The notes: generated by a model not told the origin, from the sequence alone. Positions 15,730 through 23,604 are shown, counted from the stretch's first letter. The stretch is 64,000 nt of DNA from Flaccisagitta enflata (GCA_965153355.1 OZ231126.1:32426001-32490000), one strand, 5' to 3'. Numbers and translations: made by a program.

Positions 15730-17698
15730 AGTAGAGTGACTACTCAGGGTGCCGCCTGTGGCCCCTATAATAAATGTCATTGAGATGCCGGTTGTTGACG
15801 ATTTTGGCGATCTCAGATTCGCTGAGATTGTCTGAGGGAGAGGATTTTGGTCGCCATTACTCACAACCAACAGAGAACAATATGATACATGCAAGTTAAA
15901 TACATTCGATATGCCTCAACCAACTTCGTCCAATTTCCACGTCAGTATTTTGATATCAATTTCTAAATTCATGTATGACAAAATGAAAGAGCTTGTACAG
16001 CAAATATTGTGTAAAAGGGCAAATTCATGTGGGAGGGAGTGGGAGGTAGTCAGGATGCAAAAGGGCTAAGGCGATGAGGCAAAATCTGCTCGAGTATCTC
16101 GAAACAGCCGATCCTTTCGTACCTATCATGGCCATTCTTTCGCCCATTGGCGTTACCCGAAGAATCAACTCAATTCAAAATCAGAGGGCAATTCTCATCC
16201 GCGCCGCGCTGACAGCTGTAGCCTCCCGTGAATGTCTGGACGCCACGGAAACAACAGTACCCACTCCGCAGCACAGTTCCTTGCTGAACAAAGGGGTAAA
16301 AATGCTGTGGCAATAGTGCCACTCGAAGTCACATCACGCTACACCTCACAATGTCACGCCAAAACACGCCACCAGCGCTACGCCGCCACATGCCACGCCA
16401 ATCCAAGTCACGCCAACAGAATCACGCCAATCCAAGCCACGCCAGCAGCATCACGCCAACAGGGGCGCCCGTCCGTTGAGGTGGAAAAGTCGTCCTTGCG
16501 CTGAAGGTAGAATCAATTCCACCTCCTCAGTCTGGTTTTTAGCCCCATTTCGAAAAAAGGGTAATCTCTCTTTTTCAATCTCTTTCTTTCTGTCTATCAC
16601 CGTTTCTATCTGTTAGTTTGTTTTACTGTCTCTCAATCTGGGATTCAGCTAGTTTTGACATAAAACTGTTTTCTTGACTGTGTCTCCGAGATATTCCGTG
16701 GCGTTCTACTTTAGCGTATTAAACCGCCAAAAATCGTTTCAAAAATACAAAAAAATGGATTATTGTGACAAAAATTATGAATTTTTGTCACAAAAATGCT
16801 GGAAAAGTCCATTTTGAAACGGGCGTTCTTATGCAGTTTCAAAACGATCTTATATTGTCGTTTCAAAACCACAAGTATGCGCAACTTTTGAAACGAATAT
16901 TGAGGCATAGTTGACATATCAAAACTTAGCAATTCTAAAGTTCTAAAACCATGAGATTTTTGCGTTTCAAAACGCTTGAAAACAGCGCTAAAGTAACGGC
17001 CAGCAAGGGAAAAAATCTATTCATCTTTGTAATCTTATCACCTTTTTTACCGTTTTGAAAACACAAAAAATTAAAGTATTGAAACTGAAAAAAAATGTGT
17101 TTAAAAATTGAAATATGGTTATATGCTAGCTGACTTTACCCAAACTGACTGGCTTATACGCACGCCACTCTTGGTTTTCCATAACACTGAAACTGAAAGA
17201 CATCCTTTTGGGCAGCAGCTCCGAAGGGGTTGATGACCTATGCTTTTACACATGGGGAGTTTTCTCCTCAAATTACAGTCTTGAGGCCCAAATTTTAGCC
17301 TGAAGGCCCAAATCCTTGCCTGGAGGCCCAGATCCCCGCCTTGAAGCCCAAATCTTAGCCTCGAGGTCCCAATCCCACCCAAGAGACCCAGATCCCAACC
17401 TCAAAACTCTGAAAGAGGCTTAGTCTGTCTGTCCTCCATCGGTTCATCCATTATGCTTGAGTTAAAAGTGCAAAAATGCACATTCTTAAATGAAATTGCA
17501 GTTGTGATAATCTCTTTGTGTGTTTGTGCCAAAAAGGTTACTTTTTACAGTTTTGAAACTGCAAAAAAATTGAAGTTTTGAAACTGCAAAAAAATGAAGT
17601 TTTGAAACTGCAAAAAAATGAAGTTTTGAAACTGCAAAAAAATGAAGTTTTGGAACTGCAAAAAATTGAAGTTCTGAAACCGCAAGAAATTGAAGCTA

Positions 17699-17805
17699 AG
17701 AAATACGGAGTTTCTCATAGAGAAAGAATCGAGATACGCGTCGCGTCACTTGTAAACAGAGTTACGAACACAGGCTCATATTCATTCAGCGTACTTATGT
17801 CTAAC
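17699..17805 (+). repeat. Split direct repeat A1 (left terminus)
   Basis: 107 bp, identical to 18839-18945 except one base (17759 g vs 18899 a). Confidence 0.97.
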
Positions 17806-17883
17806 CCGATAGCACGCAAAATTTCCAGTCCAAGAAAAACTCGATTTCAGTTAAACAGAAATTCGATCTCGCAAACACTCGTC

Positions 17884-19180
17884 ATGAGTGGCAAAGAAAC
17901 CGATGCAAATAAAAGGAAAGCGGGTAACTCGTCAAAGGACGAGGATGAGCCGGACTGGAGAGAAGAAATGCGTGCTGAGTTAAAGTCGTGCATCGCTTCC
18001 GCGCTAAATACGAGCGTCTCCGCGGCCGTCAATACTGCGGTGGAGGCGGCTATGGCTAGGCAGCCGTTCAATCTCCCTTTGGGCCCGTCGGAGATTGATG
18101 CTGAAGACGTCGTGGATAAGGAATCTTCCGAATCGATGGCGGACCTGATGAAGAAAATCGATGCCGGCAATCGTTCGAATAAAATAGCAATTCGCTTGGC
18201 GGCTATCTCCAAAGAGGGAAACAAGCAGCATTTCATGGACATGATTGAGATTAAAGAGAAACTGGAATGCGCCGAAGCCGCTCTCAAGGAGAGTACTGTA
18301 GATTTATACAAAAAAAAAAAAAAAAAAAAAAAGTTTAAGCTTAAGCTTATGCGAGTTTGTACAGGTTTGTGTGAGCTCACGTAGGAGCGCGTGATTGAAC
18401 AATCTTTTCTACTAGGATCCGCGGTTTTTGGAGGACGTTGACCTTGCTCGGGAGGCCGTCGCCGACTCAATGAAACTCGTGGAAGCGCGGATGTCCATGA
18501 TTGAACGCATCGACAAACATCCTCTGAGCTGGCCAGTCGCCACCGAGTATCAGAAGCTGAAACGCGCACGATCCGATGACTCGGAAGACGACAAAATTTT
18601 CGCGGCCGCGGAAAAGAAAGTGAAAGACGAACGGAAGGCCAAAAACGATGAAGCCAAATCAAAGACTCAGACGAAACAGAGAATCACGTTTCAGTCTCGT
18701 CAGTCATTTGGAGGGTCGGGTAATGTTAATCGGTACTTGTTATAGTCCGCATCATTTTGTTTGCTTTGTTGGTTCAGGTACGCTGCTACTATGAAATGAG
18801 ATTCTTGATTCATGAGAAACTACGGTTTCTAGCGAGCGAGAAATACGGAGTTTCTCATAGAGAAAGAATCGAGATACGCGTCGCGTCACTTGTAAACAAA
18901 GTTACGAACACAGGCTCATATTCATTCAGCGTACTTATGTCTAACAATAACCCACCCACCCACCCCAGGCATCTCTCAGCGGCCCTTTCCCAGTCAGGTA
19001 CTCGCAACTGACCAATGCTCGTACTGCGGACTCACCGGTCATTGGAAAAAGCAATGCTACCGCTTCAATAACGACATGCGCGGTCGGGGACAGAGGTCTC
19101 TCGGACAATCGAAATTTGCCGCCACCGGCTCCAGCAAAGACACCGCTCTTACGCAGAACGCAACAGCATACACGCAATGA
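17884..19180 (+). CDS. gag: Gag-like protein with C-terminal CCHC zinc knuckle; predicted exons 17884-18297, 18416-18719, 18969-19180
   Basis: MSGKETDANKRK...ALKEST | DPRFLEDVDL...QSFGGSG | ISQRPFPSQVLATDQCSYCGLTGHWKKQC...AYTQ*. CX2CX4HX4C starts at 19016 and is not in the ORF track. The joins restore frame. The first donor (GTAGAT) is weak. Confidence 0.75.
18778..18945 (+). repeat. Internal B1-A2 junction (copy of the circle junction)
   Basis: B1 18778-18843 matches 23253-23318 with one mismatch. A2 18839-18945 matches A1. They overlap at AGAAA. Confidence 0.97.
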
Positions 19181-21986
19181 GACAGATGTCTCTACTAAAG
19201 CCCGAGCCTCAGAGAAGGAGAGGGTGCGAACAAAATATGATGACATATTTCAAGTAAGTGACAGTTGTCACAAATTCGGCTCTTATGACATTGATAATGT
19301 CAGCGATGATTTTTCAGTGGCAGGCAGACTATCGAATCCCAAATATATCAGTTTTTTTGAAGAAATAGGTGCCTCAGAGGTGATTTTAGACACTTTGAAA
19401 CACGGTCACAAGCCAATTCTAACATCAGATGTGCCAAGTTATGAGAGAGAGAATAACAACTCATTTAAAGAACACTGCGAGTTTGGCGTAAACACCATTC
19501 TAAAGCTTATAAAAGACAAAAAAGTTGAAATTGTATCCAAAAAGCCTAAAATTGTCAATCCTCTGTCCGTTGCTGTCCAACCAACAAAATTACGGCTAAT
19601 TCTGGACTGTAGTTTCCTCAACAAATTCATAGCAGCTCCGACTTTCAAAATGGATGACCACAAAACTGCCCTCTCTTTCTTTGATCTTGACGGCTATCTC
19701 TTCTCTTTTGACATGAAAGACGGATACCATCATCTGTTAATTCACCCTGACTTTCGCGATTACCTTGGTTTCAAATTTAAGCTCAACGGACGGACCTACT
19801 ATGCTCGCTATCTCGTCGCGCCCTTTGGTCTGTGCGATGTCCCATACACATTTACAAAAATTCTCCGCCCCCTTGTGGCACACTGGAGGAGGTTAGGAAT
19901 CAAGATCTGTCTCTTTCTGGATGACGGTTTTTCTTCTTCCCGAGACAAAGCAAAAGCTCAAAGAGACAGTGTTCATGTCAGACAAGACTTGATGAGAGCG
20001 GGAATAGTCTGGAATGTAAAAAAGTCTAATTGGGAGCCAACTAAATCCCTTGAGTGGGTCGGCTTTTACTGGGACACAACTGACGGATCAATGAAAATCA
20101 AAGGCAGAAGAGTCGAAAAACTAAAACTTTTTCTGTCTGAGATGTCCGCACTCAAATCATGCACAGCTCGCAAATTAGCAGCGCTAGTCGGTCAAATCAT
20201 CTCCATGATGCCAGTAATTGGTGACGTGGCAAGGCTAAAAACAAGAAATTGTCAAATTGCCGTGGCCTTAGCAAATGACTGGGACGAGACTGTGTTACTA
20301 AACAATGGGATAAAGACCGAGATTCTCTTTTGGCAGCAGAATATTGACAGACTGAATATCTACTACTGTTTTCAATCGGACGGACCTGTCGTCTTTGATC
20401 TGATCGAAGGTGATGCTTCAGCGTCAGGTTGCGGTAGCATTCTAAATGACAGCATGATTGCGGCACAGTGTTTTAACGCTCTTGAAAGGGCTCAAAGCTC
20501 AGCATACAGAGAGATATCCAATATTCATTTTTCCCTTGTGTCATTCCTTGCCAACATAAAGGGTAGATCGGTGACAGTCAAAACTGATAGTCAAGCCGCG
20601 GCAAAGATTTGCAAAATTGGCAGCATGAATCCCCTTCTGCAGCATTTTGCTGAAAGCATATTTGAGCTGTGTTTTAAGAATAATATTAATCTCACTGTAG
20701 ACTGGGTCCCACGCAATGAGAACCAAAAGGCAGATTTGATATCCAGATTGGCTGACAGGGTTGATGTAGACGACTGGCAAATCTCCCAAGAATTTTTCAA
20801 AATTCTCAATGAGAAATGGGGCCCCTTTTCTATTGATTTATTCGCCAATCACTATAACGCAAAATGCGAAAAATTTTATTCTCTCTTTTTCTCTCCTCTA
20901 AGTCATGGGGTGGACGCATTTGCTCATAGTTGGGTTGGGGAAGTCGCCCTCATGGTTCCCCCTATCTCTCTCATCCCACGGGCCCTGTCACAGCAGCTGG
21001 TTATCCTATAATTCTTACGATCCTAGATTTGTGGCTTAGAAGGGTTACAATTGTAGGTTTTCAAGACTCTTTTACAATGGGAAAATGGGTTTTTCCTTCA
21101 TAACCCATAAAGTGCTAAATCGATTTTTTTTTATTTCTTGGGTCAATATCAATAATGAGACTACTTACCTTTGCCAAAAGAAATTGTCATCGCCACTCTT
21201 CTATAAATGGGTGGAATATGATGATGAAAGTGGCCTTCTACAATGCTTACGATTCTAGGTTTTTTTGCTTAGAAAGCTTACGATTCTAGAAACTTGCATG
21301 GAAAGCTTATGATTATAGGTCTTCTGTGATTCATTACCCACAGGTTAGTTCATGGATTAGTAGGCCCTAATTTCAGAGACAGAAATACTTGTGTGCATGG
21401 CATCAGGCTTTTTCACAATATTGCTCCTAGAATTGTAAGCTTTCTATGCAAGTTTCTAGAATTGTAAGCTTTCTAAGAAAGAAAACCTAGAATTGTAAGC
21501 ATTGTAGAAAGCCACTTTCATCATCATATTTCACCTATATATAGAAAAGTGGCGATGACAATTTCTTATGGCAAAGGTAAGTAGTCTCATTGTTAATATT
21601 GACCCAAGAAATGAAAAAAATCGATTTAGCACTTTTTGGGTTATGAAGGAAAGACCCATTTTCCCATTGTAAACAAGTCTAGAAAACCTACAATCGTAAC
21701 CGTTCTAACCCACAAATCTAGGATCGTAAGAATTATAGGATAACCGGCTGCACAGGCCAAGCTTTGTGGAATAAATTGCACTCTGGTCATTCCCCTCTGG
21801 ACCTCATCCTGTTTCTGGCCAGTCATTCTCAACGATTACACCTCATTTATCTCAGATCTCCTGAGAGTGAAAGGTTCTAAAGTTCTCCTCCATGGTAGAA
21901 ATACTAATAGCATTTTTGGTTCAGGCAGCTTTCAAGGGGAAATTCTAGCAATTAATTTTGATTTCACTGGATCCACTCACAGATAA
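18969..21986 (+). pseudogene. pol: pol: reverse transcriptase + RNase H + DAM-type methyltransferase-like domain, interrupted by a MITE at 20994-21750
   Basis: RT motifs LRLILDC, SFDMKDGYHH, APFGL, FLDDG; RNase H GDASASG, SSAYRE, KTDS, NQKADLISR; MT-like IDLFA..N.K, DAFAHSW, VPP. Removing the MITE restores RALSQ|AKLCGINCTLVIPLWTSSCFWP...THR* (stop 21984-21986). Confidence 0.92.
20994..21750. mobile_element. MITE with ~325-bp TIRs inserted in pol
   Basis: cagctggttatcctataattcttacgatcctag...ctaggatcgtaagaattataggataaccggctg; CACAG duplicated at 20989-20993 and 21751-21755. Confidence 0.95.
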
Positions 21987-22963
21987 TTCGTGAGCAAGAC
22001 TTTTGGAAAACGCAGCCTCAGAGTTACTCTTGCGTTATTGATGACATTTGGGAGTCGCTACAGCCTAGTACAACCGAAAAGTATTGTATATGCATGAGAA
22101 ATTTTTGCTCTTTCAGTTTAATCAATTCAGGTGAGATCACTTTGCCTATTGACACAGATAATGCATCCAAATTTCTGGTTTTCCTAAGGGAGCGCGGCTA
22201 CTCAAAATTCTACATAAAGCTAGGCTTGGTCGCCCTGAAGTGGGCCAATTCATTTTTTCCCAGAGCTTAATCCCTTAATGAGCCATTTCTTGACAGAATC
22301 ATTGCCAGTGCTAATCGCAATATTATCTCGTCAAAAAACCAAAAGGTCCCTCTAACCAAGTCAATGGTAGCTTCCATTCTTAATCTCAAGAATAATGCAA
22401 GTCTTAGCGAAGTTAGAGACTCTCTTATCCCAGCTCTGAGCTTCTCCCTCTTGCTTCGTAATGACGAATTAAGACACTTGTCATGTGCTCACATTGAAAA
22501 AAGAGAGGAGGGGATGATTTTCCGAATTGTATCGTCAAAGACAGATGTCTTCAGAAAAGGGAAAAGTCTGTATCTGGCAGATTCTAACGACTCAAAATCT
22601 CTTGTCTCGCTCCTCCTCAAATACATGTCACTAGGGGAGATTCCCCTGGGATCAAACAATTTTCTCTTTGGTGAAATAAGGAAAAATTCATCTAATGATA
22701 AAGAGTATGTAGACGGCACTTCTAAATTATCCTATAGCCAGTGCCTATCAATAATCAGATCCAAGGTCGCGTTATTAGGCCTAAACTCAAACTTGTTTGG
22801 TACTCATTCTGCCAGATCGGGCGGCGCGACGACGCTTGCCACGAAGGTCACGCCATTCGAGCTGATGCTCAGTGGGCGTTGGGCAGATGCCCGTTCACTA
22901 CGGAACTACGTTGAAGTTTCGGACAAAAGAAGATTTGAAATTTCTGAAAATCTTCTGAGCTAG
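21962..22963 (+). pseudogene. Tyrosine recombinase (YR) with one premature TAA at 22268-22270
   Basis: Frame open from 21962 (..SLQPSTTEKY..F..F..) apart from one stop; catalytic set LLRNDE (R), SSKTD (K), THSARSGGAT (H-x-x-R), GRW, RNYV (Y). Confidence 0.92.
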
Positions 22964-23245
22964 GTATCTTGAAAAGATACGCTGATTTGAGTCTGACAAT
23001 CGTTTTCGGTCACAATTGGTTCAGATACACACTTAATTTTCATTTTCCTCTCACAGTCGTGTTCATTTGTTTATGTTCCTTGGTGGATCCGAAGAGTTCT
23101 CATCTTGTCGTCCTATGAAGATGTCAAGTCGGATGCTTTGTAGACCTGGTGGAGCTCTAAAGATCACCCTTTAACTAGAAAGATATCCTTTCCATTTTGT
23201 CATGAAAAATGAAAAATGCTCCTAACCCGTTGCGGTCATAGACAC

Positions 23246-23251
23246 AATAAA
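23246..23251 (+). promoter_or_regulatory. Putative polyadenylation signal of the retrotransposon
   Basis: AATAAA immediately upstream of B2. Confidence 0.5.
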
Positions 23252-23252
23252 C

Positions 23253-23318
23253 GTACGCTGCTACTATGAAATGAGATTCTTGATTCATGAGAAACTACGG
23301 TTTCTAGCGAGTGAGAAA
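23253..23318 (+). repeat. Split direct repeat B2 (right terminus)
   Basis: gtacgctgctactatgaaatgagattc...tttctagcgagtgagaaa; 66 bp, one mismatch to B1. Confidence 0.97.
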
Positions 23319-23604
23319 CGGCTATTTCATATTTCATAATTTCATTGCCACTTTTTCCCAGTTCCAAAACAGTAAAAACTAGCTGGCTTGAAGTGAGAAA
23401 AAAATGATATTTTAGACAAAAGCCCTTTTTATGCAGTTTTGATACACCCAAAAAAAGCCGTTTTAAGACGGCAAGTATGCCTGCGTCTTGAAACTCCAGA
23501 TAACTGCCACTAAAGGACATTGTTGTATGCATAAATGGTTTTTTGGCCGTTCTGAAACTGTTGCATACTAGAAGTTTTGAGACGTCGTTCCCCTATTTGG
23601 GACA
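23319..23604. mobile_element. AT-rich repeat hosting the retrotransposon (right part; left part ~17530-17698)
   Basis: Reverse complement of ~63580-63950 resembles both flanks (ttttacagtt..gaaactgcaaaaaaa on the left, ...gacgtcgttcccctatttgggac on the right). Confidence 0.65.

Follow-up and report, generated by a model that had tools for sequence, protein, structure and literature searches.

This report concerns a retrotransposon in a 64,000-nucleotide (nt) stretch of Flaccisagitta enflata DNA (GCA_965153355.1 OZ231126.1:32426001-32490000), referred to here as the window, with positions counted from its first base. The element is a tyrosine-recombinase (YR) retrotransposon of the DIRS order and is PAT-like, an assignment based on its domain set and repeat layout: a methyltransferase (MT) domain in combination with split direct repeats makes it PAT-like, and neither Ngaro nor DIRS1-like. 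An earlier note on this DNA had called it a YR retroelement with split direct repeats, and the domains and repeats show that it had both the type and the layout right. There is one copy of the element within the window. Its gag frame is broken by an interval, 18720-18968, that holds the element's internal repeat junction and is probably a spliced intron.

The direct repeats and their internal junction

The direct repeats follow the order A1...B1A2...B2, and this architecture is beyond chance, with zero matches expected in shuffles. The internal repeats B1 and A2 overlap in the five bases AGAAA, which are also found at both outer ends of the element, and the B1-A2 block as a whole is a direct duplicate of the joint that would arise if circularization brought B2 and A1 together. 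B1-A2 lies wholly between the N-terminal gag open reading frame (ORF) and an ATG-less ORF that encodes a CCHC knuckle. It is thus placed inside gag, about 4.3 kb before B2, and this is not one of the positions that the published text covered gives for internal repeats, which are the gap between MT and YR or a site beside the 3' repeat. The coordinates of all features are collected in Table 1.

Table 1. Features of the element and its surroundings in window coordinates; exons and introns are predicted
Feature	Position	Strand	Remarks
Whole PAT-like YR retrotransposon copy	17699..23318	+	5620 bp; AGAAA at both outer ends
Repeat A1 (5' terminal)	17699..17805	+	106/107 bases identical to A2
gag exon 1	17884..18297	+	138 aa from ATG; aligns to P0008 residues 42-136; relatives' N-termini start alike
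Candidate intron 1	18298..18415	+	118 nt; GTAGAT...CTACTAG; phase 0; A23 run
gag exon 2 (HPLSWPVATEYQ... domain)	18416..18719	+	protein similarity to relatives
Candidate intron 2	18720..18968	+	249 nt; phase 1, in a Gly codon; holds B1-A2
Donor GTAATG	18720..18725	+	for relatives, see text
T/G-rich tract ending TTCAG	18751..18777	+	directly before B1; F/C/L/V-rich translations in relatives (by eye)
Repeat B1 (internal)	18778..18843	+	65/66 bases identical to B2
Inverted arms around B/A joint	18800..18870 (18800-18824, 18846-18870)	+	25 nt, 80% complementary
Repeat A2 (internal)	18839..18945	+	1 difference in 107 from A1
CTAAC, branch-point-like	18941..18945	+	last 5 bases of A2, 24 nt before AG; also at the end of A1
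C-rich tract and CAG acceptor	18946..18968	+	65% pyrimidine in the 20 bases 18946-18965
pol ORF (reverse transcriptase, RNase H, start of Dam-like MT)	18951..21011	+	no ATG; 230-nt overlap with CCHC ORF, in another frame
gag exon 3	18969..19180	+	CCHC knuckle 19016-19057; no in-frame ATG upstream
Foldback insertion, like a miniature inverted-repeat transposable element (MITE)	20993..21751	.	breaks pol
YR region	21962..22963	+	in-frame TAA at 22268-22270
AATAAA	23246..23251	+	directly upstream of B2; 1 of 5 such hexamers in the element, suggestive only
Repeat B2 (3' terminal)	23253..23318	+	1 difference in 66 from B1

The interrupted gag frame

Read in codons from 18416, the frame of gag exon 2 meets a TAG at 18743-18745, and five in-frame stops fall across 18743-18895. 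The CCHC knuckle, CSYCGLTGHWKKQC, of the form CX2CX4HX4C, begins at 19016 in that same frame. It matches Pfam zf-CCHC weakly (E = 0.0032; 17.9 bits against a cut-off of 20.8), and it belongs to Gag only if 18720-18968 is spliced out. Neither the CCHC ORF (18896-19180) nor the pol ORF has an ATG before its conserved parts. Removal of 18720-18968 restores the frame, together with collinearity with uninterrupted homologues.

The features of a U2-type GT-AG intron are present at 18720 and 18968: the two ends, a branch-point-like motif, and a pyrimidine tract, as judged by the general consensus rather than by that of the host. The composition changes at the same places, with a GC content of 0.42 in candidate intron 2 compared to 0.53 to 0.55 in its flanking exons. 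Taken over the gene, exons have GC contents of 0.51 to 0.55 and T contents of 0.17 to 0.20, and both candidate introns have GC contents of 0.32 to 0.42 and a T content of 0.29. What sets the pair 18720/18968 beyond chance is that it coincides with the limits of protein similarity in relatives, described below.

Much of this had been anticipated in the earlier note. The gag stop at 18743-18745 and the knuckle resuming at 19016 in the same frame are both in the sequence, G/GTAATG at 18720, CTAAC at 18941-18945 and CCCCAG/G at 18968 stand where it had placed them, and the block at 18778-18945 does lie entirely inside the 249-nt interval. Its prediction of a spliceosomal intron has gained from the similarity limits, the split Gly codon, the varying frames of the B-A region, and the collinearity with single-ORF Gag proteins, and it has found no counterpart in RNA or in a joined protein. 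The role that it gave to repeat A as a branch point is a weak proposal: it fits the family of the window and is not general, since P0032, one of the relatives, has about 29 codons between the end of A and the Gly on its acceptor side.

The limits of similarity in relatives

Relatives (designated P0001 and so on) were collected with the translation of 18416-19177, stops being written as X, which gave 41 matches at E values up to 1e-3 among 1.84 billion representative proteins. Two word-based searches gave further relatives. All of the matches are ORFs from metagenome or run assemblies, and the limits of similarity in them were placed by eye. For the donor side, there were 33 proteins with an HPLSW-type motif among P0001-P0048. 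Seven were set aside, five because they are broken before the boundary (P0010, P0012, P0025, P0027, and P0035) and two as too distant (P0028 and P0031), leaving 26, including the window and its near-twin P0002.

On the donor side, similarity stops at a Gly in 26/26. The residue that follows is N in seven, K in six, E in six, S in two, R in one, T in one, F in two, and Y in one. A phase-1 donor of the form G/GT(A/G)A would put N, K, or E after the Gly, as seen in 19 of the 26. Three ORFs end in GE followed by a stop, which corresponds to GTGAGT if the Gly codon is GGT. Beyond the boundary Gly the relatives have unrelated sequences, which reach a stop after 1 to about 25 codons or continue into the B-A region.

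The acceptor side could be followed in six sequences (the window, P0003, P0021, P0023, P0030, and P0032), and in all six similarity begins at a Gly, with QPF standing 1 to 9 residues after it. A stretch rich in P, T, S, F, and L, residues with pyrimidine-rich codons, precedes this Gly in five of the six, the exception being P0032. A phase-1 intron that splits a GGN codon would produce a Gly on both sides of the interval in conceptual translation.

Between these limits, the core of the B-A region is read in more than one frame. Where it is continuous with exon 2, the frame is of an RNYGF type in the window, P0004, P0026, and P0132 and of a KYGVS type in P0014 and P0024; where it is continuous with the CCHC knuckle, it is of an RNTEF type in the window and P0021 and of a KYGVS type in P0003 and P0032. 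The first in-frame stop also varies within the family of the window, with TAG in some copies and CAG in others. The varying frames and the TAG/CAG variation indicate that the interval is not coding.

More distant Gag proteins of the DIRS1-like type, P0036 and P0039, carry the N-terminal domain and the knuckle in a single ORF. In P0039, exon 2 matches residues 123-204 and the knuckle lies at residues 229-246, a spacing near that of the proposed joined product. The layout seen in the window recurs in relatives whose gag is only about 45 to 65% identical, and in no relative seen is B-A absent between the two parts of gag. Together, these comparisons suggest that 18720-18968 is probably a real and conserved intron.

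Points against an intron, and reads of RNA and DNA

A number of observations weigh against splicing. The donor GTAATG matches the consensus no more than moderately, and of the 198 GT-AG pairs that can be formed from 11 GT and 18 AG sites, 19 keep the frame into the CCHC knuckle, which makes a GT-AG pair unremarkable by itself; the alternative pair 18720/18929 is plausible as well. F, F, and Y, found after the Gly in three of the 26 relatives, misfit a GT-purine donor. The boundaries in relatives come from proteins alone, which do not reveal the T of GT or the A of AG. A protein joining exon 2 to exon 3 was not found among the 41 matches in the 1.84 billion representatives, and a search with exon 3 for longer proteins gave a single match, the unspliced P0003, and no joined Gag. 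The lack of a start codon before the knuckle counts for little, since DIRS-type elements often have overlapping ORFs without ATG, and the copy in the window is itself dead (foldback insertion and stop in the YR region). Spliced RNA was not seen either. Hits in a search of sequencing runs were marine metagenomes, DNA data of the same organism, and a single poly(A) RNA run, X20; the four runs examined held no joints, and the junctions are uncovered in RNA. Reading of about 6% of X20 gave three partial reads, 90 to 95% alike, that cover neither junction, a coverage too thin to speak for or against splicing.

The three X20 reads fall at 18467-18577, and their loose ends read as exon 2 of a related family. 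A relative of the element is transcribed in the organism at a low level. Two metatranscriptome contigs from another run, X7, cover 17826-18284 only. Among DNA contigs, the donor is spanned in unspliced form over 18394-18784 with one difference and over 18363-18807 with three, and P0128, which is identical over exon 2, occurs on 10 contigs. Scans of metagenome and viral contigs with the exon-2 alignment gave 594 and 66 pattern matches, respectively, and no confirmed relative among them, and a degenerate HPLSWPVATE(F/Y)Q pattern had no match in metagenome contigs.

Alternative explanations

The most serious competitor, which we regard as unlikely, is an arrangement of two cistrons without splicing. 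Here the Gag ORF would end soon after 18719, B1-A2 would be an intergenic spacer as in other PAT-like elements, and the CCHC knuckle and pol would be expressed by a non-AUG start, reinitiation, frameshifting, or a subgenomic RNA from A2. The failure to find either spliced RNA or a joined protein agrees with this arrangement, as does the common stopping place of the N-terminal ORFs, which in all 26 relatives close shortly beyond one point. Transcription presumably starts in A1, of which A2 is a near-perfect copy; P0003 has an ATG within A2 in frame with its CCHC knuckle; and a nematode relative, P0124, has a CCHC knuckle at the N terminus of a protein that matches pol. ORFs of DIRS elements also commonly lack ATG starts. 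However, the tails of the N-terminal ORFs past the Gly are unconserved and variable in length, and two cistrons leave unexplained the invariant Gly on both sides, the bias to N, K, and E, the pyrimidine-type stretch, and the collinearity with single-ORF Gag. The CCHC ORF of the window has no ATG of its own. The ATG inside A2 was considered as the start of a CCHC protein and rejected: in the window it lies in the wrong frame, and only one of five relatives has an M at its place. We also tried an acceptor at 18993/18994, which would lead from exon 2 into the pol frame, and rejected it as a general mechanism because P0003 lacks this AG.

A real intron that does no sorting appears very improbable. 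In this case, a non-coding block would have landed in gag, and spliced RNA would fail for some other reason or would propagate with help in trans. Against it, no relative was seen with the two parts joined in its DNA, whereas candidate intron 1, described below, is missing in many, and, as far as the available text of the DIRS-1 study goes, the internal region is essential in that element (PMC7192593).

Decay of a dead copy, with a mutated gag and a coincidental GT-AG pair, is nearly excluded: the foldback insertion, the stop at 22268-22270, and the number of frame-keeping pairs would allow it, but the repeat pairs differ by one base each, as in a young copy, the same interval and stop occur in other copies (DNA contigs, and P0128 on its 10 contigs), and the layout is shared by the relatives with divergent gag.

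Proposed mechanism

Retroelements use one transcript as both message and genome, and the copying of spliced RNA back into DNA should rid them of any intron. The explanation that we favor, and hold to be rather probable, is that this PAT-like copy carries B1-A2 in a conserved, spliced phase-1 intron of gag and that the unspliced RNA alone is propagated. Transcription would run from A1 into B2; the AATAAA directly upstream of B2 gives no more than a hint that transcripts end there. The intron would fall within a Gly codon of the linker that connects the N-terminal domain of Gag to its CCHC knuckle, and splicing of 18720-18968, along with 18298-18415 in the family of the window, would yield the mRNA for complete Gag. 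The unspliced RNA would serve as the replication template. It would retain B1-A2, taken to be a copy of the joint formed by the two ends in a circular replication intermediate, and under the published model it alone could regenerate full ends.

The ends of PAT-like and Ngaro elements are thought to be regenerated by annealing between split repeats, according to the sections of PMC6681497 available to us. In the corresponding text for DIRS-1, deletion of the internal complementary region stops retrotransposition, and spliced marker RNA is described as being copied into new insertions (PMC7192593). That splicing occurs and sorts genome from message is what we infer, soundly in our view, from the repeat-annealing model and the essential role of the internal region in DIRS-1. 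An RNA without B1-A2 could not rebuild the ends, and hence an intron holding B1-A2 could not be lost by reverse transcription of spliced RNA.

Pol would be made from the same spliced message through a frameshift, giving Gag-Pol. Throughout its overlap with the CCHC frame, at 18951-19180, the pol frame contains neither a stop nor an ATG, and the overlap is also open in P0057, P0060, P0062, P0064, P0101, and P0107. The 230-nt overlap, the missing ATG, and the open overlap in several relatives make it probable that Gag-Pol comes from the same mRNA, and this arrangement of frames points to Gag-to-Pol frameshifting.

If the interval is spliced, one device would solve both of the problems that retroelements face, with a replication-essential sequence kept in an intron, spliced RNA used for translation only, and the intron preserving itself. 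It would be a clear and testable case of genome and message sorting outside the retroviruses, and it would add to the layouts known for tyrosine-recombinase retrotransposons, an order that has received little study. If it is not spliced, the element is an ordinary PAT-like element with internal repeats in an unusual position. The many relatives in marine assemblies suggest that one or more groups of marine organisms commonly carry elements laid out in this way. More tentatively, and as a possibility that we find plausible without expecting it, a widespread marine PAT-like clade may use its full-length RNA as a dedicated genome that encodes no complete protein, with Gag, and probably Gag-Pol, made only from a spliced mRNA that has irreversibly lost B1-A2; the protected intron would then be immune to loss while the other gag intron came and went among sister lineages.

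Comparison with known systems

In retroviruses, the packaging signal sits after the major splice donor and spliced RNAs are not propagated. The element here would be similar in that splicing removes a part containing a cis element required for propagation. It would differ in that retroviruses translate Gag from unspliced RNA, whereas complete Gag would here need spliced RNA, and in that the intronic element would be a template for end repair rather than a packaging signal. Penelope-like elements reportedly keep spliceosomal introns through retrotransposition, a finding credited to Arkhipova and colleagues in 2003; unlike the element here, they are target primed and have no internal repeat junction involved.

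Splicing also separates translation RNA from replication RNA in the long terminal repeat elements copia, BARE1, and Ogre, of which BARE1 is described as keeping separate RNA pools and as having a small intron where gag ends (PMC3735527). In contrast to the present case, their full-length RNA encodes Gag or Gag-Pol, splicing adjusts protein ratios, and the available parts of the reports mention no replication-essential repeat in an intron.

Among YR elements, the closest in organization are the Pat1-like or PAT elements (Pat1 of Panagrellus, SpPat1, Kangaroo, and Toc3), which share the domain set of reverse transcriptase, RNase H, MT, and YR, the repeats A1...B1A2...B2, and, if 18720-18968 is spliced out here, a CCHC knuckle in Gag (PMC4157794, as far as its text was available). 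Unlike in these elements, B1-A2 here lies inside gag, between the N-terminal domain and the knuckle, and no intron is mentioned for PAT elements in the portions of the sources covered. The internal-repeat positions given in those portions are between MT and YR, as in nematode Pat1 and Kangaroo, or beside the 3' repeat, as in Ngaro, VIPER, and a Daphnia element (PMC6681497 and PMC4157794 among the sources). The echinoderm form is said to differ in the placement of its internal repeat, the details being given only in a figure (PMC4157794). The likeness to DIRS-1 of Dictyostelium is that an internal copy of the end joint is needed for full ends (PMC7192593); DIRS-1 differs in its long inverted repeats and in having the internal region outside the ORFs near the right end, and the available text describes no gag intron for it. 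Ngaro has B1A2B2 together at its 3' end and no MT, whereas here an MT is present and B1A2 is far from B2. The MT domain after RNase H also distinguishes the element from VIPER, in which it is absent.

No mention of an intron-hosted repeat junction was found in the available parts of the literature covered, which included PMC7192593, PMC3266345, PMC6681497, PMC4157794, PMC12130899, PMC8547959, PMC13465315, PMC12477816, PMC8226300, and PMC3735527; the founding papers (Goodwin and Poulter 2001, 2004), figures, and supplements fall outside this coverage. Such a junction is likely to be new among known layouts of YR elements.

A second candidate intron in gag

Exons 1 and 2 of gag are in different frames, and removal of candidate intron 1 makes them collinear with P0008, where a single ORF covers both. 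This intron has a GC content of 0.32, compared to 0.51 to 0.53 in its flanking exons. All nine members of the cluster formed by the family of the window start just after its terminal TAG, and it is missing from the ORFs of 15 relatives. In P0006 and P0007, a run of A-rich and then T-rich junk precedes the same DP and ends in K, TAG being replaced by AAG. Candidate intron 1 is fixed in the family of the window and probably present in two further subfamilies. Its presence and absence among lines suggest that the lineage carries gag introns and that one without an essential element comes and goes. The sequence AAG/GAGAGT, just before candidate intron 1, looks like the relic of an earlier donor, since mutated, that lay 9 nt upstream of the present in-frame GT.

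Structure of the junction and the termini

The inverted arms at the B/A joint are likely to form the recombinase site. B1-A2 folds with -50.8 kcal/mol (z = -3.9; 0 of 200 shuffles as good), and a strong fold of this palindrome is what a recombinase site would lead one to expect. The termini of the element likewise share 25-nt inverted arms at 80%; the terminal repeats are otherwise direct copies of the internal block, and these short arms are their only inverted repeats, in contrast to the long ones of DIRS1-like elements. Taken as a whole, 18778-18945 is a long imperfect palindrome in which GTACGCTG, at the start of B, pairs with CAGCGTAC, at the end of A. As a consequence, A1 and B2 at the termini are in part inverted repeats, which brings the element a step closer to a DIRS1-type layout. 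The tract at 18751-18777 resembles an acceptor site and is kept in relatives.

Domains, state of the copy, and surroundings

Within the pol ORF, Pfam detected the reverse transcriptase (RVT_1; E = 2.5e-12), a weak match to RNase H (RVT_3; E = 0.002, under its cut-off), and the Dam-like MT (PF05869, Dam; E = 2e-6, 28.1 bits, exactly at the cut-off of 28.1). The Dam/MT domain was also annotated beforehand in many of the pol relatives, which number 76 at E values up to 1e-10. The best named match of pol is the nematode protein P0119, at 32% identity a mere hint of PAT affinity. The YR ORF gave no match to Pfam, even at E = 10; a search of solved structures matched its residues 39-218 to the catalytic domain of Cre recombinase (E = 1.3e-5), and its atlas neighbors bear Phage_integrase.

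The single difference between A1 and A2 and between B1 and B2 indicates that the copy is young, and the foldback insertion in pol together with the TAA in the YR region indicates that it is dead. The foldback insertion has arms of about 330 nt that are 91 to 93% complementary, and it splits the methyltransferase part of pol.

Among the ORFs of at least 150 amino acids in the window, no host gene is evident. The window is dense in microsatellites and short tandem repeats, among them a 20-nt unit at 17249-17408 along with numerous runs of CT, GT, and trinucleotides. The element itself is hosted by a 24-nt tandem repeat of GTTTTGAAACTGCAAAAAAATGAA-like units at 17540-17703, with related units downstream at 23428-23583. 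Together with the AGAAA at either end, this setting suggests that a short core is shared at the site of integration, and perhaps that the 24-nt satellite is preferred.

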